Below the pieces are notes generated by a model. It worked only from the letters and a program-made list of their open reading frames with translations. It was not told the origin of the DNA and ran no database searches. The position numbers were made by a program, and so were the translations under genes. A stretch of 64,000 nt of DNA from an uncultured virus (IMG/VR IMGVR_UViG_3300045020_000075) (lineage: Duplodnaviria; Heunggongvirae; Uroviricota; Caudoviricetes): the IMG/VR virus record IMGVR_UViG_3300045020_000075; one strand, given 5' to 3'. This document shows positions 1,065-57,711 of the stretch, piece by piece. Numbering within the stretch: position 1 is the first letter of the stretch; every line of letters begins with the position of its first letter.

Positions 1065-1066
1065 CC

Positions 1067-1819: not shown

Positions 1820-1822
1820 TCT
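1794..1822 (+). promoter_or_regulatory. Sigma70-type promoter for the recombinase
   Basis: TTGACA-17-TAGTCT. Confidence 0.6.
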
Positions 1823-1847
1823 AGAAAACTACACTGGGGGCCGATTT

Positions 1848-6307: not shown

Positions 6308-6336
6308 CAAACTTTGTTTTTGTGATATATAGGAGG
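6304..6336 (+). promoter_or_regulatory. Promoter and SD of the HNH gene
   Basis: TTGACA followed by TGTGATATAT and AGGAGG; AT-rich. Confidence 0.55.
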
Positions 6337-6338
6337 GT

Positions 6339-16398: not shown

Positions 16399-17178
16399 GT
16401 GCTGACCGCGTACCAGACCGCTCTCCAGAATCTGCTGCAGAACCCCGGAGCGCCGTCACAGCTCTACTCGATCACCAGCCAAAACACTTGGATCAATACG
16501 GCGCGCGGTCAGCTTGCCGGTGAGGCCGAGTGCATCCGGCTGATCGGCACCATCTCGACCGTGGTGGGCCAGCGCGCCTACAACTTCTCAGCCATCAATA
16601 CGGGCGTCGCGGCCACCAACGGCATCGAGGGCGTGATTCACGTCCGTCGCATCTCCTACAACGTCGGCCAGAACCCGCAGGGGCTGTCGGGCCAGCAGCG
16701 CGTCGAGCCCGCCGCCTGGGAATGGTTCGACCTGTTCAACCTCAACAATCCGGTACCGACGCAAGGCCCGCCCCAAACATGGAGTCAGTACGGGCAGGGC
16801 AGTGCCGGAACCGGTACGGGGTCCGGCGCTACGGGTTCGTTCTACCTCGACCCGCCGCCGGACCTCACCTATGCGCTCAACCTCGATTGCGTGTGCTACC
16901 CGCAGGCACTGGCGGCGGATGGCGACGTGGAGGCGATCCCGTACCTGTGGACCGATGCGGTGCCGTTCTTTGCAGCCTATTACGCGTACCTGTCTGCACA
17001 GACCGGCGCCCGGCAGGCGGACGCGGAGCGGATGTTCGGCCACTATCAGACTTTCCTGCAGCGCGCCCGCCAGGCCTCGAACCCGTCCGTCAACCGGTTC
17101 CTCTACGAGCAGGCTGGTGATCCGGCGCAAGCCGCCAAGATGGGCATCAAACCGCCCGCGGCGGCCGGAGCTGCGTGA
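16399..17178 (+). CDS. Head-tail adaptor-like protein A
   Basis: AGGAGG SD; WINTARGQLA..ECIR; IPYLWTDAVPFFAA. Confidence 0.7.
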   Translation: MLTAYQTALQNLLQNPGAPSQLYSITSQNTWINTARGQLAGEAECIRLIGTISTVVGQRAYNFSAINTGVAATNGIEGVIHVRRISYNVGQNPQGLSGQQRVEPAAWEWFDLFNLNNPVPTQGPPQTWSQYGQGSAGTGTGSGATGSFYLDPPPDLTYALNLDCVCYPQALAADGDVEAIPYLWTDAVPFFAAYYAYLSAQTGARQADAERMFGHYQTFLQRARQASNPSVNRFLYEQAGDPAQAAKMGIKPPAAAGAA

Positions 17179-18110
17179 TGGCGACGCTCAACGATTATCT
17201 CAAGCAGGTCCAGCGCTTCATCCGTGAGGCGAAGCAGGACTTCATTCGCCCCGAGGACATGGTGTCGTACATCAACCGCGCCCGGCGAGAGGTCGCGATG
17301 CGGGCGCAGTGCGTGCGTCGGCTCACGCCGATCTCGGGCTCGGTGATCGGCGCGACCGTCACGGCGGGCGGGAGCGGGTACACGAGCCCGGTGGCGACGA
17401 TCTCGGCGCCTGATTGTCCGTCGAGCACCGCGCCTTACCCGAATGGAGATCAAGCGACGGCAGTTGCAACACAAGTCGGCGGGGTGGTCAACTCGGTGCA
17501 GATTTTGTACGGCGGGCACGGGTACTTCCAGCCGATCGTCACCATCACGGATGCGTCGGGACCGGGGACGGGTGCAACTGCGACGTTGCAGTTGTCGCCG
17601 ATTAATGTCGTCGTGCAAGGACAGGAAGTATATCCGTTTAGCGGAATTAACGTTAGTATGTTTCCAGGTGTAAGTTCGGTGTATATGATTAAGTCGGTTA
17701 GTGTTATATATTCAAATTATAGATATTCACTTCCTATGTATGCCTTTTCAGTTTATCAGGCAATGATCAGGCAGTATTTGTTTCAGTACCAGTATGTACC
17801 TACATTCAGCAGCCAATTCGGACAAGGCACCGATGGATCATTCTACCACTACCCCCTGCCGAGCCAGACCTATCAAATTGAGTACGACTGTTTTTGTCTG
17901 CCGCAAGATTTGAAGACAAACCAAGATGTTGATGTGATTCCGCAACCGTGGACCGACGCGGTGAGTTATTTCGCTGCGACGCTCTGCTACGAGGAAATTC
18001 AAAACCTTAACTACGCGAAATATTACCAAGACAAGTTCGATATGATGCTGTTGCGATACTCGCAATACGCTAGGCCCGGCCGCGTCACGAATCCGTATGG
18101 GAGATTTTAG
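17178..18110 (+). CDS. Head-tail adaptor-like protein B with inserted GSGY domain
   Basis: YINRARREVA..QCVR; IPQPWTDAVSYFAA. Confidence 0.7.
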   Translation: MATLNDYLKQVQRFIREAKQDFIRPEDMVSYINRARREVAMRAQCVRRLTPISGSVIGATVTAGGSGYTSPVATISAPDCPSSTAPYPNGDQATAVATQVGGVVNSVQILYGGHGYFQPIVTITDASGPGTGATATLQLSPINVVVQGQEVYPFSGINVSMFPGVSSVYMIKSVSVIYSNYRYSLPMYAFSVYQAMIRQYLFQYQYVPTFSSQFGQGTDGSFYHYPLPSQTYQIEYDCFCLPQDLKTNQDVDVIPQPWTDAVSYFAATLCYEEIQNLNYAKYYQDKFDMMLLRYSQYARPGRVTNPYGRF

Positions 18111-18756
18111 CGGCTATGACGAGCGCAATTGTATACATGTCCTTGTCGGTTCCGACTCCTTTTAGCGCATTTACGCCCCAGATGACGAACCGGCAATTAT
18201 CAGGGGTGTATCCCTTCCGATTGTTGATTCGATCGATGCTCGGTGAGAATGGCCATGGACCACGGGATTTATTTTGTCGAAATACGAGCCCTGTTACTTC
18301 GCAACGATTATCCCAACGTTCGGCAGCCCATTCATCCGTAAGCGTGAAAACGAGTCCGCGCTTTTCGGCGTCCAGCCGACGAGATTGGAGCAAGTACTTC
18401 CAAGGTTTTTTGGAGAGCGATTTTGCACGATAAGTTTTCGCATATTTCGGTTCATGTTCCCGAAACCATTCGGGATCGTCGGCGCGTTTTTTGCGTTGGC
18501 GAGCGTTGTGTAACTCGCGGTGCTCTACTTGCCAACCACCTTCATAGCAGCCGCGGGAACAGAACCTTTGGTGCCGCTTGGATTGAACGAATGGTGTACC
18601 GCACCGGATGCATGTGCGATTTCGATCCTCGGCACCTGTATCGTCAGGATGCCGGTAGTATTTTTTTTCGTAGCATTTGCGACTACAAAATTTTGGCGTC
18701 CGTCCTTCGGGCCGTTTGCGCTCAAACGGCTTCCCGCATTCAAGACATTCAGGCAT
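18085..18756 (-). CDS. HNH-type endonuclease with two Zn-finger (CxxC...FCSxxC) repeats
   Basis: RCEVTG, PSIDRINNRKGYTPDNCRFV; low GC; antisense to the tail genes. Confidence 0.85.
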   Translation of the reverse strand: MPECLECGKPFERKRPEGRTPKFCSRKCYEKKYYRHPDDTGAEDRNRTCIRCGTPFVQSKRHQRFCSRGCYEGGWQVEHRELHNARQRKKRADDPEWFREHEPKYAKTYRAKSLSKKPWKYLLQSRRLDAEKRGLVFTLTDEWAAERWDNRCEVTGLVFRQNKSRGPWPFSPSIDRINNRKGYTPDNCRFVIWGVNALKGVGTDKDMYTIALVIAAKISHTDS

Positions 18757-18877
18757 CGCGTTTTTCATCCACCATGCGCCGGATCAGTTCCGACACGCTG
18801 ATCCCCAGCTCCTTGGCGCGCTGCTTGAGCCACTTCAGGTGGGGATCGCCGAGGGTGATGCAGATGCGTATGACCAT
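18749..18877 (-). CDS. Ribbon-helix-helix (CopG-like) regulator, 42 aa
   Basis: Hand translation MVIRICITLGDPHLKWLKQRAKELGISVSELIRRMVDEKRDA; stop overlaps the HNH start. Confidence 0.8.
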   Translation of the reverse strand: MVIRICITLGDPHLKWLKQRAKELGISVSELIRRMVDEKRDA

Positions 18878-18883
18878 GTGCGC

Positions 18884-18913
18884 ATCGTATGCATACGACG
18901 GTGGGGCTGTCAA
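18884..18913 (-). promoter_or_regulatory. Promoter with palindromic operator
   Basis: TTGACA (18913-18908)-18-TACGAT; perfect palindrome TCGTATGCATACGA at 18885-18898. Confidence 0.65.
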
Positions 18914-20994
18914 TGCCGATTTCTAAGCCCCAACCCCCCTCCGAACAATCCGGCCCCTACCTTCCCCCCGGCCCCGAGCCCCTGATCTTCGAGGACTTCG
19001 AGTCGATCAACACGTCGAACACGCGCGCCGGCATCGACGACAAGCAGATGTGGTGGTGCTCGGGCTTCTACCCGTATGGCACGCGCGATTTGCGCACATT
19101 GCCCGGCATCGGCCCGATCCTCTACACCAGCCCGGGCCCCGCGATCGTCTTCTACAACTTCGCCAACATCGGATCGCTTCCGGTCGCGATCGTGTTCCTG
19201 GCCGATGGTTCGATCGTGCAGGTCGCCACCACGACCGGGGCTGCGACACAGATCGCCGGTCCCGGCACGATCCCTAACCCGAGCATCCTGACGGCCGGCA
19301 TGTCGCAGTGGGGCAGTCAGTACGTGCTGATCGTCACCAACCAGCGCGCCAACGGCTACTTCGTGTGGGACGGCTCGGTGCTTTACCAGGCGGGTTCGCT
19401 CGCGCCTGTGGTGACGCTCACCAATGTCGGCAGCGGTTACACGTCGGCCCCGACCGTTGCGGCTTCCGGGGGAAGTGGAACCGGTGCTACTTTCTCCGTG
19501 ACGCTGACCCAGAGTGACGGCGTTGCTTCTATTAATGTCGTGTATTCCGGGTCTTACGGGTCACCGGCCGGGATCAGCGTTAGTTTTTCCGGCGGTGGCG
19601 GTTCGGGTACAAGTGCTACTGCGAATATCATTTTTCTTGGCGGTGGCACATGGGGCGTTGCATCGGTGACGGTGAATGCTCCAGGTTCAGGATATACGTC
19701 GGCTCCAGGCGTTTACTTTTCGTCGCCAAATACTTTCGCCTCTGCTGCAGCCACTTCCACTATCGCAACAAGCGGCAGCGTCGCAAGTGTCACGATCACG
19801 AATGCGGGTTCGGGTTACGCATCCGGCGACACGCCCACGCTGGCGTTCTCGGGTGGCGGCGGATCGGGCGCCGCCGCGACCGTGACGATCATGCCGTTTG
19901 GGGTTTTGGGCACCGATATCGAAACCTACGCGGGTCGTGCCTGGATCATCAACGGTGCGCTTCTGCAATTCGCGGCGCCCGGCTCATTCACCAATTTCTC
20001 GACCGCATCCGGCGGCGGCTCGGTCACGTCGTCGGACAGCTTCCTGCGGGTCGGTTACGTTCGGTTGATTCAGACCAATGGCTTCCTCTATCTGATCGGC
20101 GACTCGTCGATCAATTACATCTCGGGTGTTCAGACCTCCGGGAGCCCGCCGACTACCACGTACACGAACCAGAACGCCGACCCCGAGGTCGGCACGCCCT
20201 ATCCACAGACCGCCGACGTGTTCGGCCGCAATATCGTGCTCGCCAACTCGGTCGGCGTGCACGTCATGTACGGCGCCGCAGCTACCAAGATCAGCGAGCC
20301 GCTCGATGGCGTCTACAACACGGTGCCGAACTTCAACGGCGCGCAACTCAGTGCCGCCAAGGCGACGATTTTCGGCAAGAAGACCTGGATCGTGCTGGTG
20401 CCGATCATCGATCCGGTCACCAACCAGCTTTCGAACGAACTGTTCATGTCGGTCGAACCGTTCAAGAAGTGGTTCTCGTCCAAGCAGGACGTGTCGTTGA
20501 CTTTCATCCAGTACCAGGAGATCAACTCAGTATTGACTGCGTGGGGCACGGACGGCGGACGCATCTTCCAACTGTTTGCGCAGCCCTCCGTGGGCTTCAC
20601 CAAGACGGTGCAGTCCAAGCTCTACACGAAGGCCGGCGGTTACCAGTTCCGCAAGTCCGCGGGCCGCCTGTGGGGCATCGCGCAGTACAACTCGACGCTC
20701 AGCCCCAACATCACGGTGACGATCGACAACGAGGTGTCGTCGGCCACCTACGTGATCGTGCCGCCCACGACCGGCATGACGTGGACCACGGCCAGTGGTA
20801 CGGTGATGAACTGGACGACGGCCGGCAGCGCCGCGATGACGTGGACGACCAGCCAGATTGGACTTCGAACGTTCGGCCCGCAGGCCGTGGGTCAGAACGG
20901 TACCATGCTGGGATTTACGGTTCAGACGGCCGCGGCCGATGCCGCCCTGGTGTCGCTCATGATGGACGATCAGATCACGCAGTACAGGGGCTGA
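18913..20994 (+). CDS. Tail nozzle / DNA-stabilisation protein with inserted GSGY repeats
   Basis: ~690 aa, beta-propeller-like; IETYAGRAWI; FLYLIGDSSINYIS; KISEPLD; follows the adaptors. Confidence 0.7.
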   Translation: MPISKPQPPSEQSGPYLPPGPEPLIFEDFESINTSNTRAGIDDKQMWWCSGFYPYGTRDLRTLPGIGPILYTSPGPAIVFYNFANIGSLPVAIVFLADGSIVQVATTTGAATQIAGPGTIPNPSILTAGMSQWGSQYVLIVTNQRANGYFVWDGSVLYQAGSLAPVVTLTNVGSGYTSAPTVAASGGSGTGATFSVTLTQSDGVASINVVYSGSYGSPAGISVSFSGGGGSGTSATANIIFLGGGTWGVASVTVNAPGSGYTSAPGVYFSSPNTFASAAATSTIATSGSVASVTITNAGSGYASGDTPTLAFSGGGGSGAAATVTIMPFGVLGTDIETYAGRAWIINGALLQFAAPGSFTNFSTASGGGSVTSSDSFLRVGYVRLIQTNGFLYLIGDSSINYISGVQTSGSPPTTTYTNQNADPEVGTPYPQTADVFGRNIVLANSVGVHVMYGAAATKISEPLDGVYNTVPNFNGAQLSAAKATIFGKKTWIVLVPIIDPVTNQLSNELFMSVEPFKKWFSSKQDVSLTFIQYQEINSVLTAWGTDGGRIFQLFAQPSVGFTKTVQSKLYTKAGGYQFRKSAGRLWGIAQYNSTLSPNITVTIDNEVSSATYVIVPPTTGMTWTTASGTVMNWTTAGSAAMTWTTSQIGLRTFGPQAVGQNGTMLGFTVQTAAADAALVSLMMDDQITQYRG

Positions 20995-26289: not shown

Positions 26290-27912
26290 GTGGCCAAGTT
26301 CGTCGTCGAGCAGGATGGTCGAACGTACGAGGTCGAGGCTGTCGATTTTGGTACCGCCAAGCAGGCCGTCATAAGCAACATCAAGCCCAAAAACGAAAAG
26401 ATGGAAGAACAGATGGGTGTCGGTGGGCGCTTCATGGAAGGCGTCGTCGATCCCGTCTACGGCGCCCGACAACTTTACAATCACGTCGCCGGGTCCGACG
26501 AGGATGCCGCCAAGATAGATCAGGAAATCGATAAGCGCGAAGACACAATCAAGCGCAAGTCCGGCGTGACCGGAACTGACTATGTTCGAATGGGTGGTCG
26601 GATGGTGCCGGCGGTTGCGCTCAGCGCCGCCGGGGGGCCGATCGGCGAGGCAATTGCCGGTACCGGTGTGGCGGGAGGCGCTTTGGGTGGTGCGCTGACC
26701 GGAACGGTCGATAGCTTGCTCAGCCCCACGACGGGGGGCAACTACGCACAACAAAAATTCGAGCAGGCGCTGTTTGGCACAGCCTTTGGCGGTCTCGGCG
26801 CAGGCGGGACCAAAGCCATCGGCAGCACCATATCGCCAACCGTACGCGAAGCCGCCAAGGCGCTGATGGATCGGGGGATCGAGCTTACGCCGGGTCAGAT
26901 CGCCGGTGGAATATTGCGACGCGGCGAGGAAGCCGCCAAGAGCTTTCCGATTCTAGGCACGTTCATTCGCGGAGCCGAGACGCGCAGTGTCGAGAGCTTC
27001 AACCGGGCCGCCATAGATCAGGCGTTGGAACCACTGGGAATAAAATTGCCGACATCCGCCAAGCCTGGACACGAGTCGATCTCGTACGCCAAGTTGCGGC
27101 TCGACGATGCGTACGACAATCTGCTTCCCAAGATGCATCTCGGGATGGACAACGATCTGGCGTCCGACATCGCCAACACGCGTTTTTTGGCATCCGAGTT
27201 GCCGGGCGAGCAGGCCAAGCAATTCGACACCATCATGCAGAATCGAGTTGCCAAGTATTTTGCCGACTCGGGCGCGATCACGGGCGACAAGCTCAAGAGC
27301 ATGGAAAGCGAACTCAACTATATCGCGTCCACGTACCGGGCTTCGTCCGACGCGGGTCAACGTCAGTTGGGCCAGCGCCTCGACGATATGCGGTTTGCGT
27401 TGCGGGACGCACTGCAGCGACAAAATCCGCAAGCCGCCGAAGCTTTACAGAAGATCAACTCGTCGTACGCGATGTTCACGCGCCTGGAATCAGCCGCAAC
27501 CCGTCGCGCCGGTTCACAGGGGATTTTCACGCCAAGCGATCTGCTTCAAGCGATCAAAACGACCGACAAGTCGGTGCGTAAGGGAGCGTTCGCGCGCGGC
27601 GATTCGCTTATGCAGGATTTTGCCGAATATGCCGATATGGTAATCCCGTCGCGGCTATCGGACAGCGGCACGCCGGAACGACTGGCATTTAGGGACATGT
27701 TGGGTGTTGGCGCTGGAGTCGTCAGCCCAAAAATTCCGATCGGTTTAGGTGCGGCGTCGCTTCCGTATACCAAGACGGGATCGAAAGTTGTCAACTCCGT
27801 GATGGGCGAGCCTGGTCCGATCCGACAGGCGATCGGGCAAGGAGTCAAGCGAGTCGCAGCACCGGCCGGTGGTGTTGCGGCCGTTCCGGGCATTACGTTT
27901 ACGGGTGACTGA
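26290..27912 (+). CDS. Internal virion / DNA ejection protein
   Basis: Gly-rich TM-like segment; GIELTPGQ; SDSGTPER. Confidence 0.65.
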   Translation: MAKFVVEQDGRTYEVEAVDFGTAKQAVISNIKPKNEKMEEQMGVGGRFMEGVVDPVYGARQLYNHVAGSDEDAAKIDQEIDKREDTIKRKSGVTGTDYVRMGGRMVPAVALSAAGGPIGEAIAGTGVAGGALGGALTGTVDSLLSPTTGGNYAQQKFEQALFGTAFGGLGAGGTKAIGSTISPTVREAAKALMDRGIELTPGQIAGGILRRGEEAAKSFPILGTFIRGAETRSVESFNRAAIDQALEPLGIKLPTSAKPGHESISYAKLRLDDAYDNLLPKMHLGMDNDLASDIANTRFLASELPGEQAKQFDTIMQNRVAKYFADSGAITGDKLKSMESELNYIASTYRASSDAGQRQLGQRLDDMRFALRDALQRQNPQAAEALQKINSSYAMFTRLESAATRRAGSQGIFTPSDLLQAIKTTDKSVRKGAFARGDSLMQDFAEYADMVIPSRLSDSGTPERLAFRDMLGVGAGVVSPKIPIGLGAASLPYTKTGSKVVNSVMGEPGPIRQAIGQGVKRVAAPAGGVAAVPGITFTGD

Positions 27913-28136
27913 TGACCAAACAAACGCTCGAAAAAACGCTGAGCGACTTCGCGCTCGAACTCGCCACCAAGGCGCGGCTGCGGGACACGCCGCTCGACCA
28001 AGCGACCGACACCTTCAAGGCGCTCACGGCTTACCGCGCGCTCGAACTCAAAGGTCGCAAGGGCCAAGAAGACACCGAGGACGACCACGAGCCCACCATG
28101 AGCGACCTGCAACGACAGATCAACGGAGGGGGATAA
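27912..28136 (+). CDS. Hypothetical protein
   Basis: TGATG coupling. Confidence 0.65.
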   Translation: MTKQTLEKTLSDFALELATKARLRDTPLDQATDTFKALTAYRALELKGRKGQEDTEDDHEPTMSDLQRQINGGG

Positions 28137-28411
28137 TGGCCGACGTAAAGCCGCAATTCACCGTAGTTGAGGACGAGCCGGAAGCCGCCGCGCGACCGCC
28201 GCGTGACACCGCCATGCTGATGATGGCGCTCCGGGCGCTGTCTCAGCGGGCCGTGGCCGCCATCGCGGACCTGTTCATGCTCGCGACCGTGGGTCTGGTG
28301 TTCTGGATCGCCAACGCGATCTCGGCCGCGCCGTCGACCGCCCAGATCACCACACTTGGCGTGTTCGCGACCTTCGTGCTGCTGGCCAACTTCATCGTGC
28401 GAAAGTTCTAG
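28136..28411 (+). CDS. Small two-TM membrane protein
   Basis: GGAGG SD; two hydrophobic helices. Confidence 0.65.
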   Translation: MADVKPQFTVVEDEPEAAARPPRDTAMLMMALRALSQRAVAAIADLFMLATVGLVFWIANAISAAPSTAQITTLGVFATFVLLANFIVRKF

Positions 28412-28413
28412 CC

Positions 28414-29658
28414 ATGAAACGGTTCTTCATCGCGGTTCTGCTCCTGCTGGGCTCGATCTGTGGCGCCTCGGCGCAGCAGGCCGACATGTTCTGCTGGGTG
28501 CCGGGTGCGGTGTCACCCAATAACTGGGTGCCGTGCTCGTCGACCACGCCGCTGCAGGTCACCGGCACGTTCTCGGCTTCGATTGCCGGCTTCGCGCCAG
28601 GTGGCGCCTACGCCAACCTGACTTCGACCGCGTTATCTGCCGACGTAGCGTTGCCGACCGGAACGGTTGTCGTCGCTTTCAATACCGGGACAACGGCAGT
28701 TTCGTGCACGTTTACGATCGGTGCCGGGTCGTCGGTAGCAAATCATAATGTCATTCAGGCCAGTTCGTCGAGCGCCTTCACGGTTGGTTCCAACACGCAC
28801 GTGTCCTGCATCAACCAGGCGGGTGACGCTGCGAACAACGTCGTGGTGTTCAGTGGTGGCTCTGGTCTCGCGACTGGATGGGGCGGAGGTGGTGGCGGTT
28901 TTTCTACAGTTACGGCAAATCAGGGGACGGCGAACGCGACGCCGTGGAACCAGAACGTCAGCCAGTGGGGCGGCAGCGCGGTCGGCGCGATGGCGAACTA
29001 CGGGACCTCGCCGGGTGCCGTGCTGGTGCCGGGCGTCAATGCGTTCGTAACGAACGCGAACGCGAACGTTCCGAACAATACGGATGCCCAGGCTGCGAGC
29101 GCCACTGCTGGGTCCCCTGTCGTCAATTACGGTTATGGCTTCAACGGAGCGACGTGGGACCGCTTGCAGGTTGATGGCAGCAAGAACCTTAAGGTCACCT
29201 CGATCATCACCGGAACGCTGCCGGGCTTCGCTTCGACGCCGACCGTCAATGCGGCACAGTCGGGCACATGGTCGAATGTGGGCGTCAATGTTCAAGCCGT
29301 GGCGAGCGGCGGCTGGTCGTCGAAATGGTTCATCGCTGCCAATAGCGATAATGCGACCAACCTCAAGAACTCGGCCGGCATCGTTCATGCCGTGCAAATC
29401 TACGGCATCGGATCGACGCCGGCATGGCTAAAATTCTACGACACGTCATCGTCTCCGACGTGCAACAGCAGCACGATTGTCAAGCAGCTTCTCATCCCGG
29501 CTAACAGCACGGCGGCGAACGGTGCGGGTAACAACGCCCAGGTGATCGACAAGCAATTCACCACGGGAATATCATATTGTGTCGTGACCGGGATCGCGGC
29601 AAGCGATGATACGGCAGTCGCCGCTGCCACCTACGTCGTCAACATCGATTATCAGTGA
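28414..29658 (+). CDS. Signal-peptide-bearing Ser/Thr/Gly-rich fibre-like protein
   Basis: MKRFFIAVLLLLGSICGASA|QQ; FNGATWDRL; 6 mature Cys. Confidence 0.75.
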   Translation: MKRFFIAVLLLLGSICGASAQQADMFCWVPGAVSPNNWVPCSSTTPLQVTGTFSASIAGFAPGGAYANLTSTALSADVALPTGTVVVAFNTGTTAVSCTFTIGAGSSVANHNVIQASSSSAFTVGSNTHVSCINQAGDAANNVVVFSGGSGLATGWGGGGGGFSTVTANQGTANATPWNQNVSQWGGSAVGAMANYGTSPGAVLVPGVNAFVTNANANVPNNTDAQAASATAGSPVVNYGYGFNGATWDRLQVDGSKNLKVTSIITGTLPGFASTPTVNAAQSGTWSNVGVNVQAVASGGWSSKWFIAANSDNATNLKNSAGIVHAVQIYGIGSTPAWLKFYDTSSSPTCNSSTIVKQLLIPANSTAANGAGNNAQVIDKQFTTGISYCVVTGIAASDDTAVAAATYVVNIDYQ

Positions 29659-29666
29659 GCGCGACC

Positions 29667-30578
29667 ATGCTCCGATCCTTCCTCGCGGCCTGCGCCTTTC
29701 TCTTCCTCGCCACACTACCTGCTAATGCCGCGTGTCCTGGCAACGCCTGCTTTGCCATCGGCGGCGGCTTCACGATGGATTTTGCGACAGATTCAGCCCA
29801 CTGGTCTGGTTCGACCGGCGGAACGACGTGCTCGTGCGAGCCAGGAACAAACGACGCGCTTACGTTCGATAGCAGTTCTGGTGGCGGAACAGTAACCTTC
29901 AATGTCAGCGGCGGGGTTACTGTCGCCTCGATCACGACCAGCAGCTTTACCGGAACGCTGGATAACTCCATCAATAACAACGCCGTAAATGCACAATTTT
30001 TCTTGTGCAATGGGGCCGGCACGCAAACCCTTAAGATGGGCAGTGCGACGTGGTCGATGTCGCATGTCGGCGGATCGACTTGGTTCATCAGTTGTACCAA
30101 TATGACGCTGACAGCCGGCACGTCGACTATTGCTTTTACCGGCACGGCTACCTCGACACGCACTTTTGTCGGCGGTGGCAAGACGTATAATACGGTGACG
30201 TTCAATAGCAGCACCAATTTCGCTATACAAATCACTGGTGCAAACACGTTCGGCACCCTCACGGTAAATGCGCCCAATCGAGTGGATTTTACGGGTGGTT
30301 CGACCAACACCATAACGACTCTGACGAATATCACGGGAAGCTCAAGTGCGGAGACGTTGTTCGATTCAAGTGCCCAAGGTACGACGGCAACTATTTCCCT
30401 GACGAACAACTTCACCGGCTCGTGGATGGGATTCCGAGATATAACGCTATCGGGCGCCGGAACAATGACCGCGAGCAGCTCATTTAATTTTGGCAACAAC
30501 GCCGGAGCCGGGTTGACAATTTCCGCTCCGTCTTCGGGAGGCGGCGGTAGCGGCCCTTTGATTGGTGGCGGCCTGTGA
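29667..30578 (+). CDS. Signal-peptide-bearing beta-helix/adhesin-like protein
   Basis: MLRSFLAACAFLFLATLPANA|AC; HWSGSTGG..PGTND..FD; 6 mature Cys. Confidence 0.75.
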   Translation: MLRSFLAACAFLFLATLPANAACPGNACFAIGGGFTMDFATDSAHWSGSTGGTTCSCEPGTNDALTFDSSSGGGTVTFNVSGGVTVASITTSSFTGTLDNSINNNAVNAQFFLCNGAGTQTLKMGSATWSMSHVGGSTWFISCTNMTLTAGTSTIAFTGTATSTRTFVGGGKTYNTVTFNSSTNFAIQITGANTFGTLTVNAPNRVDFTGGSTNTITTLTNITGSSSAETLFDSSAQGTTATISLTNNFTGSWMGFRDITLSGAGTMTASSSFNFGNNAGAGLTISAPSSGGGGSGPLIGGGL

Positions 30579-30579
30579 T

Positions 30580-32748
30580 ATGGCAGGCTGGAACGTTGTG
30601 AGGTTAGTCGCGGCTCTCTTGTGCTGCTTTGTTTTATGCGAGCATGCCTTCGCTCAATTCAGTATAATACAGGTTAACGGAGCCAGCCTCGGGCCGCCGT
30701 GCTCCGTCACCAAGAACATCGTCGCGGATTTCGGTGCAACTGGCGTGGCCACTGATAATGCCACACCCGCGTTCTTGTCCTTTCAGAGTTTCGCGGCGAC
30801 CTATGTTGCCGCAAATCCAGGAAACACTATCTGCCTGACGGTCCCGCCCGGCGTCTTCACGTTCGGGACGTTTCTTGCCACTCCGATCGGGGACGGAATC
30901 CCGAGCCTTGTGGTCAACGGAGCGGGAGCGACAACCGCCAATGCTGTCGATCTTGTGACGACAGCACCCGCTACGTCTGGCACCAATGTCCTTACATTCG
31001 CGAGCGTGCCGAGTTGGTTGGCAAGTGTTGGCGGTGGAGCGGTTGATCTCAACAATGGTTCGGCGATCCCTGCCTCCGTCCATGTCTCGTCGACGACTGG
31101 CACGACGGTCACGCTTTCCGGGAACCTCACGGGGAATGTCTCCGCGGGAGACAAGATCAGTTTCGCAGCCGGCGGTTATTTCCTCGGAGCGCGGGGAATA
31201 AATGCTTCGCTCGGCGCAACAGTTCAGACCGTAGCGGCGGGTTCAACCTCTGTAACCCTGACCAATCCCGCACAGGCATCTTCATTCACTGCGAACACAT
31301 TCGCATATCTCTCCGGTGTTGACCTGGAGGGGTTCGGGTTTCCTCCGAATAACTACGTGTGGGAGTACGTCTTCATCACGAACGTGAACGCCGGCACCGG
31401 TGTCATCACGTTTCAGCAGCCAACGCAGTTTTCTTACGAATCGACTTGGCCGACCTATGCGACTGATACCGGAGGGCCGGCTACGATTTTCCCAATGCCC
31501 TCGACCTGGAACGTCGCGAATTGGTATAACGGTCTGAGCATTTATCAATGGACTGGCGGGTCCCTCATTAATATGAACGGCCGCCAGATCACCTGCAATT
31601 CGTGCACATTTACCAATTGGGGTCCGAATATTTCGCAGCAGCAGACGTTTATCTGCAATGGGTGCGATTTGACCAACATCGGTCGGCTAGAGACCGACAA
31701 GATGTGGCAGAATGTGACTTTCAACGGCGGGACTATCGAGGGCTTTTTTATCCAGTCTGGTAGCCTGACCGGAACGCTGACCCTTAACAACGTACACGTA
31801 ACCCATTCCATCGCTGGGACACCAGGATACTTCTATCTCAACAACTCGGCCGTCGATACCGGATTGCAGATCGGCCCCGGCTTCGGCCAAACGCAGATCG
31901 CATCATGCACCAACAGCCAGCTTCCCGGCGATGCGCAATATGGTGGCAACTTTTTAAGCTCATTCAACAATGCCGGCTCATCAATGAGCGGTGGCATCGT
32001 CACAATACCGCTATCGGTCCAACATCCGATTACTTCGTTCGGGCCGAATGTTCAGATGTTCTGGGCGGGGAATACGACCTTTGCGATTCCGTTCAGCTTC
32101 ATCGATCTCACCGCGGACGCTACGAATTCATATCTTCAAGTCACGACGCCTGGAGGGTTCCCGGCCCTTACGGGCGGCCACAGTGCCCGCTCAGTTGCGG
32201 CGCAAAGCCTGAACTTCTCGGGATGTACGGGGACACCCCAGGTCGTCGATCTCTCCCAGCCTGGCGCACGAAATAAGCCCTGGGGGCACTATTCCAATCG
32301 AATCTACACCTGCACGAACAATGTCGCGACAATCCAGGCCGCCAATCCTGGTGTGCCCGTGATCGACATGAACAGCGTGCCGACGACCGACCCGCTTATA
32401 AACGGCGCCATCGCGTCGATGTCCGTCAGTGTGTCACCTGCCGACACGGGCGCAAACCCGACCGTTAATTTTCATGCTATGGCGGCGTTCGACAATTATC
32501 CGACAATCTCGCCGACAACCGCCGCAACCACAACATGGGGCGCCATCATCAATCTCAAGGCTGCTGGAACGCGAACGTATAACGGAACGACTGCGGCGTG
32601 GTCGGGCAGCCAGTCAGGCGACACACTGCCGACGATCGAGGCTTCCAGTTACATGACCGGAGTTATGCAGCCCAACACCAGCGTGAACCTGAGTGGGGAG
32701 GCGGCGAATGCGTGCCCAGTCGTCACCGTGACGATCCAGACTCAGTAG
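30580..32748 (+). CDS. Signal-peptide-bearing tailspike-like beta-helix protein
   Basis: ...CFVLCEHAFA|QF; NIVADFGATG.ATDNATPAF (pectate-lyase-3-like start); 10 mature Cys. Confidence 0.75.
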   Translation: MAGWNVVRLVAALLCCFVLCEHAFAQFSIIQVNGASLGPPCSVTKNIVADFGATGVATDNATPAFLSFQSFAATYVAANPGNTICLTVPPGVFTFGTFLATPIGDGIPSLVVNGAGATTANAVDLVTTAPATSGTNVLTFASVPSWLASVGGGAVDLNNGSAIPASVHVSSTTGTTVTLSGNLTGNVSAGDKISFAAGGYFLGARGINASLGATVQTVAAGSTSVTLTNPAQASSFTANTFAYLSGVDLEGFGFPPNNYVWEYVFITNVNAGTGVITFQQPTQFSYESTWPTYATDTGGPATIFPMPSTWNVANWYNGLSIYQWTGGSLINMNGRQITCNSCTFTNWGPNISQQQTFICNGCDLTNIGRLETDKMWQNVTFNGGTIEGFFIQSGSLTGTLTLNNVHVTHSIAGTPGYFYLNNSAVDTGLQIGPGFGQTQIASCTNSQLPGDAQYGGNFLSSFNNAGSSMSGGIVTIPLSVQHPITSFGPNVQMFWAGNTTFAIPFSFIDLTADATNSYLQVTTPGGFPALTGGHSARSVAAQSLNFSGCTGTPQVVDLSQPGARNKPWGHYSNRIYTCTNNVATIQAANPGVPVIDMNSVPTTDPLINGAIASMSVSVSPADTGANPTVNFHAMAAFDNYPTISPTTAATTTWGAIINLKAAGTRTYNGTTAAWSGSQSGDTLPTIEASSYMTGVMQPNTSVNLSGEAANACPVVTVTIQTQ

Positions 32749-32869
32749 GGGGCGGAACGTAATAGGGGATGCGCTCCGTGTTGCACCGCGAACACCAAAA
32801 CGACGCGTCACGGTAGAGCCAACGGTGAAGTCCGAGCCGGCATAGAATCTGGCCGATGAAACTTCTCAT
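32723..32869 (-). CDS. 48-aa Zn-ribbon mini-protein (antisense)
   Basis: Hand translation MRSFIGQILCRLGLHRWLYRDASFWCSRCNTERIPYY... Confidence 0.55.
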   Translation of the reverse strand: MRSFIGQILCRLGLHRWLYRDASFWCSRCNTERIPYYVPPPTESGSSR

Positions 32870-32996
32870 GGAATGTCTCGCGAGAACGCGTGGGACATTA
32901 CAACCTACGGACTAGCCAAGGTCAAGGCCCCATCCGCTCATGGAACATCGTTGACACAGGTGTGATTTTTATGCAACACTCCCCGCGGAGGAACTG

Positions 32997-33479
32997 ATGG
33001 CCTCGCCGATTCAGCAATCAGGACAAGTCACGCCGGGTCATGTCGCGATCTTCACGACCGATGGCGTGATTCAAGATGGTGGCCCGCTGCTCGGACCCTC
33101 CGAGACCAAGCTGGCCCAGCTCCTCGGCGCCAACTTCAATACGACGAATGACCAGCAGATCGCGATACCGACTACGATCACCAAATTCCAGCTCACCCGC
33201 ATCGTGGTGACGAATGCCAGTCCGTCGCTCACCACCGCGGTCGGGGGGTTCTACCCGCAACCCGCCAAGGGCGGTACCGCGCTGGTCGCGAACAGCCAAG
33301 TTTACTCGTCGCTCACGACTGCGTCCGTGCTGCTCAACCCGACACTGACTTCGTATGCCAACACGACCGCGTTGACGGCCGCGATCCTCACGTCGTTCTC
33401 GATTTACTTCTCGCTTTCTACGCCGCAAGGCGCGGCAGCGGTCGGTGACATTTTCCTGTTCGGAGTGATCCTCCAGTGA
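32997..33479 (+). CDS. Cys-free structural protein sharing an N-terminal module with 33476..36502
   Basis: GGAGG SD; IQQSGQVTPGHVAIFTTDGVIQDGG. Confidence 0.7.
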   Translation: MASPIQQSGQVTPGHVAIFTTDGVIQDGGPLLGPSETKLAQLLGANFNTTNDQQIAIPTTITKFQLTRIVVTNASPSLTTAVGGFYPQPAKGGTALVANSQVYSSLTTASVLLNPTLTSYANTTALTAAILTSFSIYFSLSTPQGAAAVGDIFLFGVILQ

Positions 33480-36400
33480 CGTGGCTGAAGCGCCTCGCGG
33501 CGATCATCTTCTGGTTCGCGCTGGTTCACTCGGCGCACGCACAATCAGTGATTCAGTCGGGCAACGTGACGCCCACCCATTTGTCCTGTTGGACGAGTGG
33601 GGGCGTCATCCAGGATTGTGGCAGCGCCTTCAACCCATACGCCTCAGGAATTGGCGCGATCGGGCCGGTGTGCTCGCTCAGTGCCGGCATCACGGGACCG
33701 TACCAGCAGTTTTGCCTGCAGGCCGGTTCTGGTGGTGGCGTGCTGTCGATCCAGAACTTCGGCGGTGCCACAGCGGGCGGGATCAGTTTCACGATCAACG
33801 GAACGCCGGCTACTTTTCCGACCGTCGTGACGCCAACCGTTAGCGGCGATCTTGCATCATTCAACAACACGATCGGCACGCTTATTGACTCAGGTATCGC
33901 CAGCAGTAGCATCCTTCCAAACATCGACGTGTGGCTGCTGACCGGCAGCAGTAACACAGTCGGACAAGGTAGCTCAGCGTCAGCTCCGATTCCGCCAGCA
34001 AGCGCGCTGATGTTTTGTAATTCCGGCGCCACTAATCCAGGTGTTACGCATCTCGTCGATCCGGTTTGCAGTGCCGTCTCCGCTTCCGCAAATTGGAATG
34101 CTAATACTGGCAGTATGTGGCCAGAGTTTTCCCTCTCGTACAACCGCTCGGTCGGAATCGTACAGACGGCGGTCTCTGGCTCAACTCAATCGACCGCTTG
34201 TGATTTCGGTGTTGGCAACGGCAACTGGCAAGTGACTGGCGCCGGCACGAACTACACGAACGCCGTGGCAGCGATCAATACGGCACTGGTTGCCTATGCT
34301 GCCGCTGGGTACTTCCCGATCTTTCGTGGGATCATTCAAACTGATCTAGGCGTCAACGACGGTGCGCAGATCGATGCTTCCGTCAGCGGGTGTACGCAGG
34401 CGGCTTACACGACGGCGTTCAACGCTATGGCTGCGAACTTTCGAGCAGCCACGATCGGAGGCAGAACTTATCCGCGCCTGCCGATTTACATGACATTGGT
34501 TGGTACCAATTCGAACGCTTCGTTCCCGGACTCTCCCGGCTATTTGCAGGTCAGGCAAGCACAGTTGTCGATCGTCGCATCTGATCTCAACACGCAGATC
34601 GTGAACGTGGATGCACTAAGTTTTGGTGCACGAGGATTGCTCCAGACTAACAGCGTGCATCCGACGCAAGCCGGTTACAACGAATGGGGCGCTCAAATCG
34701 GCGCATCCGTGCTCCCGTTCATTCCGGCCGTAATTCCGTACGTGTCTTACAGCGCAAATGCGAGTGCACCAACGCTTCCAACCGCCGGCACTGTTCTCCA
34801 GATTACAGGAGTAGATAACGCCTCAACCACTGTTCAGACGGATTCGTATGGCAGCGCGGCATCGACATTTTTGCTACGAAGCGCGGCAGGCACCGGAGTT
34901 ACTCCAACTGCCATTCAAAATGGTTCCAATATCGGAATTTTCGCAGCGAGAGGTTATGGCGCGACGGGCTTCGGTACGCGTAACGTAGGAGCACTGTTGT
35001 TCGCGGCTACTCAGAACTGGACTGACACCGCGCAGGGCACCCAGGCGTGCATCTACACGACGGCGAACGGCGCCAACACGGCGACTTGCAATCTGACGAT
35101 CGGGCAGAACGGTCTGATTTCCGCAGGCGCGCTCACGCTGACCGGGACGCTCACGACGAACGTCACGGGCTCGACGCAATGCCTGCACGTCAATACGGCG
35201 GGCGCTATTTCGGGTACGGGGAGCGATTGCGGATCGGGCGGCGGCGGTAGCATCACGATCGGCTCGACTGACATCACGAGTGGAACTAACGGCCGCATTC
35301 TCTATGATAATTCAGGCGTTGTCGGTGAGGCGACAGTCACCGGCTCGCTCGGCTCGGTAGTGCTCAGCACCAGCCCATCCATCTCCGGCCTCACAGTCAC
35401 CAGCTCTTTCACCGCGACCGGGCTCGTGACGAACGCCGATCTTGCGAACTCCAGCGTGACCTACGGCACGACGGCGGTCGCGCTCGGCGCCTCGTCAACG
35501 TCGATCGCGGGGCTGACCGAGCTGAGCCTGACCTCGGCGGCCGGCGCAACGGTCGACTGGAACGCGGACACGTATTTCGGCCGCAGCGCGGCGGCGGCGT
35601 TGCGGCTCGGACAAGCGGACGCGGCTGCTCCGGTTGCGCAAAAGCTCGGCGTGCAGAATGTCGTCACTGGAACCAGCAACACCGCGGGCACTGACTGGAC
35701 GATCGCTGGATCGCAGGGCACCGGCACCGGAATTGGTGGCAACATCAAGTTTCAAGTCGCGCCAGCCGGCACGACCGGCACGAGCGTCAATGCGCTCACC
35801 GACGCGATGCAGATTTACAATACGAAGTTTGTCAACATTGGCGGCAACTTCGCTCCTGACGCGATGTTCGTCGTCAACGCCAATACCGGCGTAGTGTCCC
35901 CCGGCGCACAGCTGGGCACGCTGATACATTTGATCGCCGCTGACAGCACGGTCGGGGTTTTTGATTTCGATGCTTTTACTTCTCTCAGTATCTTCCAGGG
36001 TAGGTTGGCCGGAGGAACGCGAGCGGCGCCAACCGCGGCGACCGCGGCTTCTTATATCTTCAACATTCAAGGTCAGGTGTATGATGGCAGCACAGGTTAT
36101 GCTGGCGCGGCAGACATCGGCTTCAAGACCATCAGCCAAACCTCGACCTCCGATCACAGCGGCCAGATCATATTCCGCACCGTAGCGGTCGGAGCCACGT
36201 CACTGACACAGCGCATGCTGATCGACCAGGGCGTCATCATCGGCGCTGGCACGACCGATCCGGGTGCTGGCAGCGCGCTCGCCTCAGGCTTCCTCTCTAT
36301 CGGATCAAGCACGGTGCCGACTGCCTCGGCCGGCGAGTTAGTGCTTGCCAAGATCAGTGCAACAGGCACGGCGCCGACTGCCGGTTTCCTCAAGTTCGAG

Positions 36401-36502
36401 GCGGTCGCTGGTACCAACGCGGGATCGTGCAAGATTATAGCCTACGCCGGCACATCAACTACACCTGTCACCATCATTGATAACGTCGGGAGCGGCTGCT
36501 GA
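33476..36502 (+). CDS. Signal-peptide-bearing fibre protein with an SGNH/carbohydrate O-acetylesterase domain
   Basis: ...FALVHSAHA|QS; LLTGSSN (block I), VSGS, LGVND, NSVHPTQAGY; 14 mature Cys. Confidence 0.8.
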   Translation: MTWLKRLAAIIFWFALVHSAHAQSVIQSGNVTPTHLSCWTSGGVIQDCGSAFNPYASGIGAIGPVCSLSAGITGPYQQFCLQAGSGGGVLSIQNFGGATAGGISFTINGTPATFPTVVTPTVSGDLASFNNTIGTLIDSGIASSSILPNIDVWLLTGSSNTVGQGSSASAPIPPASALMFCNSGATNPGVTHLVDPVCSAVSASANWNANTGSMWPEFSLSYNRSVGIVQTAVSGSTQSTACDFGVGNGNWQVTGAGTNYTNAVAAINTALVAYAAAGYFPIFRGIIQTDLGVNDGAQIDASVSGCTQAAYTTAFNAMAANFRAATIGGRTYPRLPIYMTLVGTNSNASFPDSPGYLQVRQAQLSIVASDLNTQIVNVDALSFGARGLLQTNSVHPTQAGYNEWGAQIGASVLPFIPAVIPYVSYSANASAPTLPTAGTVLQITGVDNASTTVQTDSYGSAASTFLLRSAAGTGVTPTAIQNGSNIGIFAARGYGATGFGTRNVGALLFAATQNWTDTAQGTQACIYTTANGANTATCNLTIGQNGLISAGALTLTGTLTTNVTGSTQCLHVNTAGAISGTGSDCGSGGGGSITIGSTDITSGTNGRILYDNSGVVGEATVTGSLGSVVLSTSPSISGLTVTSSFTATGLVTNADLANSSVTYGTTAVALGASSTSIAGLTELSLTSAAGATVDWNADTYFGRSAAAALRLGQADAAAPVAQKLGVQNVVTGTSNTAGTDWTIAGSQGTGTGIGGNIKFQVAPAGTTGTSVNALTDAMQIYNTKFVNIGGNFAPDAMFVVNANTGVVSPGAQLGTLIHLIAADSTVGVFDFDAFTSLSIFQGRLAGGTRAAPTAATAASYIFNIQGQVYDGSTGYAGAADIGFKTISQTSTSDHSGQIIFRTVAVGATSLTQRMLIDQGVIIGAGTTDPGAGSALASGFLSIGSSTVPTASAGELVLAKISATGTAPTAGFLKFEAVAGTNAGSCKIIAYAGTSTTPVTIIDNVGSGC

Positions 36503-36819
36503 TGCGTGCAATTGCCTTGCTGTTGATCCTCGCCCCGCTCGCGGCCTTTGCGGCTGGCCTGTCGCCCGGCGTCAATGTCGATATGGGCTGCACTAGCACA
36601 GGCCAGGGTCTTACCTACAACGGCAGTTCGATCGTGTGTCAGGCGCCGCAGCGGCCGGTGACCACGGTAGGCTCGCTACCGACTTGCAACAGTGGTACGC
36701 AGGGGCAGATGATGTTCGTTACCGACGCGCTCGCGCCAGTCGCGTTGTCTGCCGTCGCAGGCAGCGGTGCCGTCAAGATCGGTGTGACGTGCAACGGTAC
36801 ATCGTGGATCGTACAGTAG
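36502..36819 (+). CDS. Small secreted protein with a fibre C-terminal module
   Basis: MRAIALLLILAPLAAFA|AG; TVGSLPTCN..QG..FVTDA..VTCNGTSW. Confidence 0.75.
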   Translation: MRAIALLLILAPLAAFAAGLSPGVNVDMGCTSTGQGLTYNGSSIVCQAPQRPVTTVGSLPTCNSGTQGQMMFVTDALAPVALSAVAGSGAVKIGVTCNGTSWIVQ

Positions 36820-36830
36820 AGAAAAGAACA

Positions 36831-37064
36831 ATGAAACGACTTGTTACCATCTTCTTTTTCTTCGCACTAGTCTACTCGTCGAACGCACAGACGCCCCCAA
36901 CGCCAGAGGCACAGGCGCTCGCGCAAAAGCTCATGTCCGAAATCAATGCCAATATTCAATGCGCGGCCGCCAACATCACGCTCAATCAGCAGCTCACTGC
37001 CGCGCAAGCGAAGATCAAGGCTCTTGAAGACAAATACGGGCCAAAGAAGGATGTGCCAAAATGA
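36831..37064 (+). CDS. Signal peptide plus coiled-coil protein (spanin-like or fibre chaperone)
   Basis: MKRLVTIFFFFALVYSSNA|QT; LTAAQAKIKALE. Confidence 0.65.
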   Translation: MKRLVTIFFFFALVYSSNAQTPPTPEAQALAQKLMSEINANIQCAAANITLNQQLTAAQAKIKALEDKYGPKKDVPK

Positions 37065-37699
37065 CCGACTTCCCGACCGCTCTCAAGAAGCTGTGGCCCC
37101 ACGGCGACCAGCACATCCCTGGTCTCGTCGAGGGCATAATTACATCAGCGTATATCGTCTTTCCGAAGTACGGCATCACGATTCCGCTCGTCATCGCGCA
37201 TATGTTCGCGCAGTTCAGCGAGGAATGCGGTGCCGGATTAGAGATGGTAGAGAATATGAATTACAGCGAATCCGGGCTGCTGAAGACCTTCCCAACGCAT
37301 TTCACCGGATCGATGGCCGAACGCTACGCCCACAGCCCGCGCATGATCGCCGACGTGGCTTATGGGGGCCGGATGGGCAACGCACCGCCGCCCTCCGACG
37401 ACGGCTGGAACTATCGCGGTCAGGGGTTGAGTCAGGTGACCGGGAAGGCCGGGGTCGAGATTTTGCAGAAGACGCTCGACGCCCACGGTGCCGGCTTTGA
37501 CGTGGTCGAGAACCCGTCGCTGATCACCGATCCAACCCACACGCTAGAATGCGGCGTGGCCGACTACATCGCGTGTGGGTGCCTGCCGCATGCTGAGCGC
37601 GACGATATCGTCGGCGAGACGCGCGCGCTCAACGGCGGCCTCAACGGGCTGGCGGTGCGCGAGCAATGGTTGCGGCAGTGGAAGGCTGAACTGCTATGA
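37061..37699 (+). CDS. Endolysin, glycoside hydrolase family 19
   Basis: AHMFAQFSEEC, ENMNYS, YGGRMGN..DGWNYRGQGLSQVTGK, TRALNGGLNGL..R. Confidence 0.9.
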   Translation: MTDFPTALKKLWPHGDQHIPGLVEGIITSAYIVFPKYGITIPLVIAHMFAQFSEECGAGLEMVENMNYSESGLLKTFPTHFTGSMAERYAHSPRMIADVAYGGRMGNAPPPSDDGWNYRGQGLSQVTGKAGVEILQKTLDAHGAGFDVVENPSLITDPTHTLECGVADYIACGCLPHAERDDIVGETRALNGGLNGLAVREQWLRQWKAELL

Positions 37700-37944
37700 G
37701 TTGGCTCTGGGTTTACTGGCCTCTGGCGCTCGCGTTCATCGCGCTCGTGTTGTTCGCGATTCCCGAGTGGGCCGCGATTCGGTACGGCGGCCCGACGTTC
37801 TCACGGTTCATGGCGACGGTCGCGAACGCAGGCGCGGCCGGCAAACTGTGGGTGCTGGCGTGGGGAATGCTGATCGGAGGACTTGCGGTGCATTTCCTAG
37901 GATGGTGTATGTATACGTGTGACGGCAAACTCACAGGAGGATAG
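37696..37944 (+). CDS. Two-TM membrane protein (lysis module)
   Basis: Hydrophobic segments; ATGA overlap. Confidence 0.65.
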   Translation: MSWLWVYWPLALAFIALVLFAIPEWAAIRYGGPTFSRFMATVANAGAAGKLWVLAWGMLIGGLAVHFLGWCMYTCDGKLTGG

Positions 37945-39030: not shown

Positions 39031-39064
39031 AGGGGCGGCACCGGTTTGCCGCCCTGAGTTTTTG
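39031..39064 (+). terminator. Intrinsic terminator
   Basis: GGGCGGCA-loop-TGCCGCCC followed by a T-run. Confidence 0.7.

Positions 39065-51579: not shown

Positions 51580-51583
<4 letters not shown>
51383..51583 (-). CDS. Hypothetical protein
   Basis: Coupled overlaps. Confidence 0.55.
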
Positions 51584-52422
<839 letters not shown>

Positions 52423-52712
52423 TGTCCATCTCCCGTTTGCCTGACACACTACACATGGCACGCCCGCGATGGCTTGTAAAGAGTAATCTTAGGTCAGGAG
52501 CGTTGACCCAAAGTAGGGAAGGAGTGCTGTCCGTAAAAAAGCGGAATGCGACAATGGCTTGACGTGAGGGGGTCGGCGGAGTGAGACTGGAAGCACAAAA
52601 CCCGCCACGGGGGCGGGTTCTGGCTGCACGGTGAGAGCGCACAAAGGTGGTGTCCGGGCTGGACCCAGACCTTGTGCCATACCTCGCAGCCGAGCGCAAG
52701 AGGCTGCGAGAA
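52423..52712. promoter_or_regulatory. Divergent control region between the leftward arm and the primase
   Basis: TGTAAAGAGTAATCTT box at 52475-52490; hairpin AACCCGCC/GGCGGGTT at 52599-52619. Confidence 0.55.
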
Positions 52713-57659: not shown

Positions 57660-57711
57660 TTCGCGCCGTGCGCTATGTGTGAGGCCGGCTTAGTCGCCGG
57701 CCTCTTTTTTT
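57655..57711 (+). terminator. ~55-bp repeat copy 2 containing an intrinsic terminator
   Basis: AGTGATTCGCGCCGTGCGCTATG...AGGCCGGC-TTAGTC-GCCGGCCT-CTTTTTTT. Confidence 0.85.

Follow-up and report, generated by a model that had tools for sequence, protein, structure and literature searches.

Signal-peptide-like leaders and paired cysteines in a candidate tail-fibre block of an uncultured P22-like phage

Introduction

To our knowledge, the known tail fibres and tailspikes of P22-like and T7-like podoviruses are all cytoplasmic and leaderless. This work concerns a block of seven rightward genes at positions 28,414 to 37,064 of the window, our term for the whole 64,000-nucleotide stretch of DNA analysed (IMG/VR virus record IMGVR_UViG_3300045020_000075, an uncultured member of the Caudoviricetes). 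Genes are named here by the position of their first nucleotide. Six of the seven block genes encode proteins with signal-peptide-like leaders and, judging from their sequences, these proteins are very probably exported through Sec and folded with disulfide bonds. A longer chain of events, composed of late export, disulfide folding in the periplasm and binding at lysis to a particle built in the cytoplasm, is put forward with less assurance, as a somewhat probable reading of the same sequence patterns.

The fibres of P22-like and T7-like podoviruses resemble the block proteins in their place in a late operon, in a conserved N-terminal domain followed by a variable enzymatic or adhesive C-terminus, in the S74 chaperone (found here among homologues) and, for P22, in a last-step addition that is workable outside cells. 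The differences are that the block proteins have predicted cleavable leaders and paired cysteines, and that the N-terminal domain of 33476 has no sequence or fold match. The P22 tailspike is depicted without a signal peptide in one account (10.64898/2026.09.13.751334). Cytoplasmic folding without a signal peptide, which characterises podovirus fibres, does not apply to the block proteins if their heuristic leader calls are followed.

The MAT fibres of Bdellovibrio bacteriovorus have a signal peptide, a beta-rich domain that is conserved and ~130 residues long, a mosaic shaft, disulfides in some cases and either S74 or non-S74 tips, and their N-terminal domain is described as having no solved homologue (PMC10769870). 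In 33476 a leader is likewise followed by a conserved beta-rich domain, a likeness of architecture only, and its family has a mosaic shaft and an S74 or non-S74 tip. MAT fibres, however, are chromosomally encoded, stand on the surface of the predator and are not known to have leaderless orthologues in virion modules, whereas the block lies in a phage late operon. Because the cytoplasmic synthesis of podovirus fibres and the chromosomal cell-surface setting of MAT fibres both fail here, the block proteins are assigned to neither class.

In filamentous phages, assembly takes place at the membrane and involves no lysis, and pIII of Ff is a Sec-exported, disulfide-bonded receptor-binding protein. 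Eib and Lom are prophage surface adhesins with beta-barrel anchors that are expressed in lysogens. Trimeric autotransporters of the Eib type differ from the six leader-bearing block proteins in their C-terminal outer-membrane barrel anchor, which Pfam does not find in the latter. Disulfides have been described in tailed-phage particles of Agrobacterium phage Milano (PMC10811340) and in a siphovirus tail tube (PMC13576161). In the available text of these two papers the word "periplasm" has no occurrence, spontaneous oxidation or host enzymes are proposed and no export is invoked, whereas here cysteine pairing follows the leader. Signal-peptide-like leaders on tail-module proteins of cultured tailed phages, as in the block, are found in the Cellulophaga phage phi10:1 (gp091-094) and Tunturi 2 (gp12, 13, 14 and 17).

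Leaders and Cysteines of the Block Proteins

Leaders were called with our own heuristic, which looks for a basic N-region, a hydrophobic core and small residues at -3 and -1, and with conservation. The initial annotation had placed signal peptides on six of the seven genes, and by this heuristic all of its coordinates and cleavage motifs were correct (Table 1). No leader was called on the seventh, 32997. An alternative GTG start for 29667 lies at 29655 and overlaps the upstream stop; it leaves the cleavage site unchanged. Chance or artefact was ruled out as the origin of the leaders, since the heuristic accepts none of 727 windows placed inside the six proteins and none of the 148 core virion and late proteins from the window and related loci. 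It also passes 38292, outside the block. The mature cysteine counts of 6, 6, 10, 14 and 4 claimed for five chains were confirmed, and the sixth leader-bearing protein, 36831, has one mature cysteine. The cysteines had also been called mostly closely spaced; this is true of only some of them, such as two CxxC pairs in 30580, and others are 10-135 residues apart.

Two side observations concern the leaders themselves. The predicted first mature residue is most often Gln (25 of 61), as is likewise seen in phi10:1. N-terminal Gln can be capped as pyroglutamate, and such capping is possible for the mature block proteins. Block-protein leaders at L007:10570 and L030:7364 start with twin arginines, so some clade members may use Tat instead of Sec.

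Table 1. Features of the window discussed in the text. Lengths are in amino acids (aa); a slash marks the predicted cleavage site.
Feature	Coordinates	Strand	Predicted leader	Remarks
Adaptor-like 16399 and 17175, nozzle-like 18889	16399..20994	+		Leaderless putative virion parts; PHROG tail/structural, gene maps
Two-helix membrane protein, 91 aa	28136..28411	+		Directly upstream of block; family in 20/41 loci
Predicted exported protein, 414 aa	28414..29658	+	28414-28473, ASA/Q, 20 aa	Conserved C-terminal domain of ~120 aa with Cys350/Cys389 pair
Predicted exported protein, 303 aa	29667..30578	+	ANA/A, 21 aa	Thr/Gly/Ser-rich, beta-type; 6 mature Cys
Predicted exported protein, 722 aa	30580..32748	+	AFA/Q, 25 aa	10 mature Cys; tailspike/beta-helix-like as a lead only
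Leaderless Cys-free protein, 160 aa	32997..33479	+		N-terminal hairpin in common with mature 33476, plus jelly-roll
Predicted exported mosaic fibre, 1008 aa	33476..36502	+	33476-33541, AHA/Q, 22 aa	14 mature Cys
Predicted exported protein, 105 aa	36502..36819	+	AFA/A, 17 aa	Mostly a fibre-tip module with Cys pair
Coiled-coil-like predicted exported protein, 77 aa	36831..37064	+	SNA/Q, 19 aa	1 Cys
Endolysin, GH19-type	37061..37699	+		phrog_181, E 5e-39; overlaps last stop codon of block
Outer-membrane beta-barrel-like predicted exported protein, 237 aa	38292..39005	+		C-terminal Phe; last gene before terminator
Intrinsic terminator-like hairpin	39032..39055	+		9 pairs, strongest in scan; closes rightward late transcript

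Conservation and Covariation in Relatives

Patterns from mature 33476 retrieved 40 related viral loci, mostly on contigs of 60-67 kb. For counts of cysteine parity, seven near-duplicates and truncated open reading frames (ORFs) were dropped, giving 34 loci including the window. Signal-peptide-like leaders, whose conservation in related genomes the initial annotation had suggested checking, are clade-wide: leader-bearing block proteins of at least 100 residues occur, at least one per locus, in 25 of the 34 loci. An even number of mature cysteines is found in 55 of 60 leader-bearing, cysteine-containing block proteins, or in 50 of 55 once the five of the window are set aside; among core proteins it is found in 25 of 67. 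Cysteine density is 1.73 per 100 residues in the block proteins and 0.32 in the core. Among 155 database homologues of 33476, a leader-like start is present in 141 and an even cysteine count in 134 of these 141, the search being biased by a query that included its leader. A query free of leader sequence (28414 residues 295-414) avoids this bias; the heuristic accepts 23 of the 28 homologues that this query found, and all 23 have even mature counts.

The N-terminal domain of 33476 is also found without a leader in relatives, where the initiator Met lies 3-10 residues before a common motif. In an alignment and tree from which five divergent rows and duplicates were excluded, 19 of 20 leader-bearing copies retain Cys66/Cys80, the remaining one having a shifted partner, and none of six leaderless copies does; Cys38 and Cys48 are both present or both missing in all 26 domains. 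Counts are even in all complete leader-bearing copies of 33476, 20 of 20 by script and 21 of 21 after hand re-sorting of the L030 rows; for long leaderless copies with cysteines the figures are 4 of 8 by script and 3 of 7 once two L030 rows were re-sorted by hand. The tip module keeps its cysteine pair in 9/9 leader-bearing and 0/3 leaderless copies (sorted by eye), the pair of L039 being shifted. Leader and cysteines thus covary in two modules, as oxidative folding after export predicts. This covariation, together with the 21 of 21 even counts, strengthens the part of the initial annotation that proposed export and disulfide folding.

The same comparison bears on two other accounts of the leaders. 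If they were uncleaved, or worked by signal-arrest-release as in SAR endolysins, they would anchor the fibres in the inner membrane and time their release to lysis. The canonical (A/S)xA sites in six of six proteins make this highly improbable, as do a cleaved start four residues before the motif, resembling the position of the leaderless Met, and the prevalence of Gln as predicted first residue. It is also very unlikely that an internal GTG after the leader gives rise to a cytoplasmic virion fibre, with the exported form secondary. Codon 25 of 33476 is such a GTG, and a start codon lies 1-2 codons before the motif in 13 of 29 leader-bearing homologue rows (hand count, near-duplicates included). 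The remaining 16 rows have no such codon, however, and the Val at this position is conserved as a residue. No Shine-Dalgarno-like sequence precedes the GTG, and in 30580 the stretch between codons 15 and 45 contains no start codon.

The Mosaic Protein 33476

The protein 33476 consists of a conserved N-terminal domain of ~120 residues (with Cys38/48 and Cys66/80), an SGNH-like region at ~150-410 and a beta-rich shaft. Throughout its family, which comprised 677 sequence clusters at E<=1e-3, the N-terminal domain is constant and the C-terminal modules are variable. An S74 chaperone ends 8 of the 65 homologues scanned out of 155, and a search with the family profile finds a long tail fibre distal subunit (E 9.5e-6). 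Together with the Bd1334 match described below, these are indirect signs that the protein may form a homotrimeric beta-fibre. The N-terminal domain was modelled with a predicted local distance difference test score (pLDDT) of 89.3. Its best fold match has a Z of 3.3, and Foldseek gave none at E<=0.001, a result in which a match may have been masked by modelling an intertwined chain as a monomer. The initial annotation had assigned an SGNH esterase. Catalytic-type motifs were indeed found (Ser158 in TGSSN, GVND at 292-295 and His395, with Asn replacing the usual acid before His), but the Pfam SASA score (PF03629, E 0.0081, 16.2 bits) is below the cut-off of 24.8 and the region has no PDB match, so the esterase stays a lead.

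Virion Fibres or Other Exported Proteins?

By gene maps, orthologues of 33476 are encoded in the virion module of short-tailed phages. In one slot, between adaptor 2 and nozzle, the N-terminal domain carries a leader in L015 and L017 but none in L018, L021 and L029. The other slot lies between ejection and lysis genes; L026 and L037 have an almost wholly leaderless block there, L007 and L011 a mostly leaderless one. Homology and gene position support 33476 and 36502 as putative fibres; such an identity is much less supported for 28414, 29667 and 30580, and the genes of the block may serve more than one function.

Cultured phages provide a second line of comparison. In phi10:1, four consecutive proteins annotated as structural from virion tandem mass spectrometry (gp091-094) have leaders, of which three pass the cut-off and the fourth scores 4.3. 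In the podovirus Tunturi 2, the leader-bearing proteins gp12, 13, 14 and 17 belong to the tail module and have 20, 10, 20 and 34 mature cysteines; the available text of the Tunturi 2 paper contains zero mentions of signal peptides. A tblastn search with 33476 gave a match neither in phi10:1 nor in Tunturi 2. The P22 tailspike is the last part added and binds heads in vitro (10.1101/2021.09.20.461090), which makes joining after lysis feasible. Between the two outcomes proposed by the initial annotation, a virion appendage and a surface complex, joining to the virion is favoured by inference.

A number of observations weigh against virion fibres made by export. The N-terminal-domain tree requires a minimum of three leader-state changes, of which supported branches force only one; the rows are therefore not independent, and the counts given above are inflated by kinship. 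Repeated switching of leader state was for this reason not demonstrated. Some long leaderless proteins are rich in cysteines and even in number (18 in L026, 14 in L037, 8 in L021 and 14 in protein 5313 of L012). The protein 33476 has no S74 domain itself. Its N-terminal motif doubles as a shaft repeat, with a second copy at residue 124, and a protein of 7287 residues (P0016) has 36 stretches matching the N-terminal hairpin motif; because of this recurrence, the motif is no more than a candidate anchor. The phage phi10:1 is unrelated, its leader-bearing proteins are cysteine-poor (0-2), and their detection by mass spectrometry could reflect co-purification. No cultured relative of the clade was found among 50,697 records. 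Finally, the genome G002 has leaderless fibres in its virion module plus a separate leader-bearing block, so the exported set could serve another job.

One such job would be display on the infected or lysogenic cell, where the proteins would serve as adhesins of the MAT kind, mask receptors or modify the surface enzymatically, and never join a virion, perhaps held by the beta-barrel 38292. The architecture equals that of MAT fibres, and residues 750-934 of 33476 match the Bdellovibrio MAT fibre Bd1334 (E 1.1e-4). The serine recombinase and exported beta-barrel of this genome, the arrangement in G002 and a possible internal promoter (TTGACA at 32951) point the same way. Display is nevertheless considered unlikely. 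The block is coupled to ejection and endolysin genes and does not stand apart like morons, and its slots are occupied elsewhere by leaderless orthologues that are incapable of export. Pfam finds no anchor domain in the block proteins, and members of the barrel family occur in just 7 of the 41 loci, many of which stop too soon to reveal one. The six leader-bearing proteins end in Q, L, Q, C, Q and K. Were display correct, the block would amount to a phage-encoded, secreted mosaic-fibre system of the MAT type, linking virion fibres to bacterial surface adhesins.

Excess soluble tailspike is common in lysates. A periplasmic stock might be freed when the cell lyses and then act as depolymerases or decoys in solution, ridding the progeny of capsule and debris, with only leaderless proteins on the virion, and the enzyme-like domains (the SGNH motifs and the beta-helix lead) agree with such a role. 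We regard this as rather improbable. It leaves unexplained a conserved, non-enzymatic N-terminal domain that is shared with leaderless virion-module proteins, and there would be no long leaderless fibre candidates from nozzle to lysis beyond 20996 (248 residues) and 32997.

A Proposed Route of Assembly

If the exported proteins do join the virion, the route would run as follows. The block would be translated along with the late genes; the gene coupling is seen in the sequence, and the timing is deduced from it. The host Sec translocon would export each chain and signal peptidase I would cut it, leaving an N-terminus that matches, as a sequence pattern, that of the leaderless orthologues. In the periplasm the chains would fold, most likely with intrachain disulfides, presumably through DsbA, and the fibres would form trimers. 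Meanwhile the cytoplasm would build DNA-filled heads with the tail hub, as is established for P22-like phages, together with the leaderless 32997. In the last and least secure step, the inner membrane would fail at lysis and the stocked fibres would bind the particle, 33476 through its N-terminal domain. The small exported proteins may be tips, linkers or folding helpers. Possible gains of such a route are stabler fibres in soil and the exclusion of sugar-cutting enzymes from the cytoplasm.

On balance the evidence leans towards a widespread tailed-phage family that builds its virion in two compartments and whose fibre genes may each swap route through joint gain or loss of leader and cysteines. 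Each part is a protein of a familiar kind; any novelty would lie in the route and hinges on the attachment step. No description of Sec-exported tailed-phage fibres was found in the literature searched, with most subscription journals and supplements outside its scope. The rule at stake is that tailed-phage particles are completed in the cytoplasm, which underlies fibre engineering as well as annotation, where a protein with a signal peptide is taken to be "not structural". If the proposed route is true, a large uncultured group (the 677 clusters sharing one domain) relies for its infectivity on the Sec system and signal peptidase of the host, and probably on its Dsb enzymes as well. New host-range limits and defence targets would follow, as would exchange of fibres between particles in lysates. 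Tunturi 2 and phi10:1, cultured phages of the same design, make the claim testable now.

Other Genes of the Block and Its Borders

The family of the membrane protein 28136 also occurs in G002, G005, G006 and G010. The last of these is the locus L026, whose block is leaderless, so 28136 is not export-specific and its role as a dedicated export partner is unsupported. No Pfam or PHROG match was obtained for 28414, and a family search with 29667 was without match. The beta-helix that the initial annotation saw in 30580 remains a lead: the best ESM Atlas matches are beta-helix or pectin-lyase-like at 0.88, under the mark of 0.9, and Pfam, PHROG and PDB sequence searches gave no match.

The leaderless 32997 aligns with 33476 by BLASTP (E 4e-7) over the first 40 mature residues of the latter. 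Its AF2 model (pLDDT 84.6) has middling best fold matches to the trimeric capsid cement proteins of KHP40 (Z 8.8, root-mean-square deviation 3.2 over 105 residues) and Pam1 (Z 8.3, 3.6 over 112), level with generic jelly-rolls at Z 7.8. Matches in a viral library are uncharacterised phage proteins (best E 4e-11). The protein is a candidate virion knob or decoration protein made in the cytoplasm.

The tip module of 36502 also terminates other fibres, some leader-bearing with the cysteines kept and some leaderless with the cysteines lost. Small leader-bearing proteins like 36831 were seen by eye in or beside the block in L005, L022, L023, L030, L032-34 and L035; a function as periplasmic trimerisation helper is speculative. 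Beyond the endolysin, 38292 falls in outer-membrane protein beta-barrel clusters of the ESM Atlas at 0.93 and has no plasmid matches. It could be involved in superinfection exclusion, aid lysis or serve as an anchor. In L037, sugar-nucleotide and radical-SAM-like genes (by eye) lie within the leaderless fibre block at 4780-8400.

Genome Setting

The last 23 bases of the window repeat its first 23, so it is very likely the complete genome, ~64 kb long, of a P22-like soil podophage. PHROG matches identify a terminase (7144), the major head protein (13957), tail or structural proteins (16399, 17175 and 18889), an acetyltransferase, the GH19 endolysin (37061) and a serine recombinase. Portal, scaffold, adaptor, nozzle and ejection labels were assigned from P22-like gene order, with the absence of cysteines used too for the ejection genes and weak PHROG matches for adaptors and nozzle. 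From 24439 to 37944 the genes abut or overlap, except for 248 nucleotides before 32997 and 11 before 36831. The longer gap, at 32749-32996 inside the block, contains TTGACA at 32951-32956 and, ahead of 32997, a strong GGAGGA; this TTGACA is a possible internal promoter that is absent from the list of the promoter scan. Promoter and terminator site totals in the window showed no excess over shuffled sequence. Fibre switching driven by an invertase was rejected, as the 25 longest of 102 pairs include no convincing inverted repeats flanking the block.

A first single-protein scan of viral contigs gave zero matches. Searches by tblastn with 33476, the major head protein, 32997, adaptor 2 and the 28414 domain returned Manatee Spring metagenomic records or nothing. 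No prophage copies were confirmed in GTDB by two short-pattern scans, which are insensitive. An alphaproteobacterial host is a guess from a porin-start motif.

Several minor features lie elsewhere in the genome. A gene of 388 residues just after the major head gene (14968-16134) is kept in nine loci and has weak tail-fibre or baseplate PHROG matches; its product is possibly a capsid vertex or turret protein. The two adaptor-like genes (16399-18110) are tandem paralogues, and L017 has three (5841-8208). The second has an insert resembling those in 14968 and 18889. This tandem arrangement and the shared inserts suggest stacked tail rings that offer several docking sites. In the early region, a 61-nucleotide direct repeat of 90% identity (57313-57373 and 57649-57709), each copy with a terminal hairpin and T run, reads as a duplicated terminator or small RNA. 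On the minus strand, an ORF at 51580-52461 has a long Ala/Asp/Tyr low-complexity tract and an exact 48-nucleotide tandem duplication at 51929-52024. Around the genome ends (1-5483 and 62434-63660) lie glycosyltransferase-like and TPR-glycosyltransferase-like genes (both by eye), methyltransferase genes and the serine recombinase, and these genes may modify virion or host sugars.

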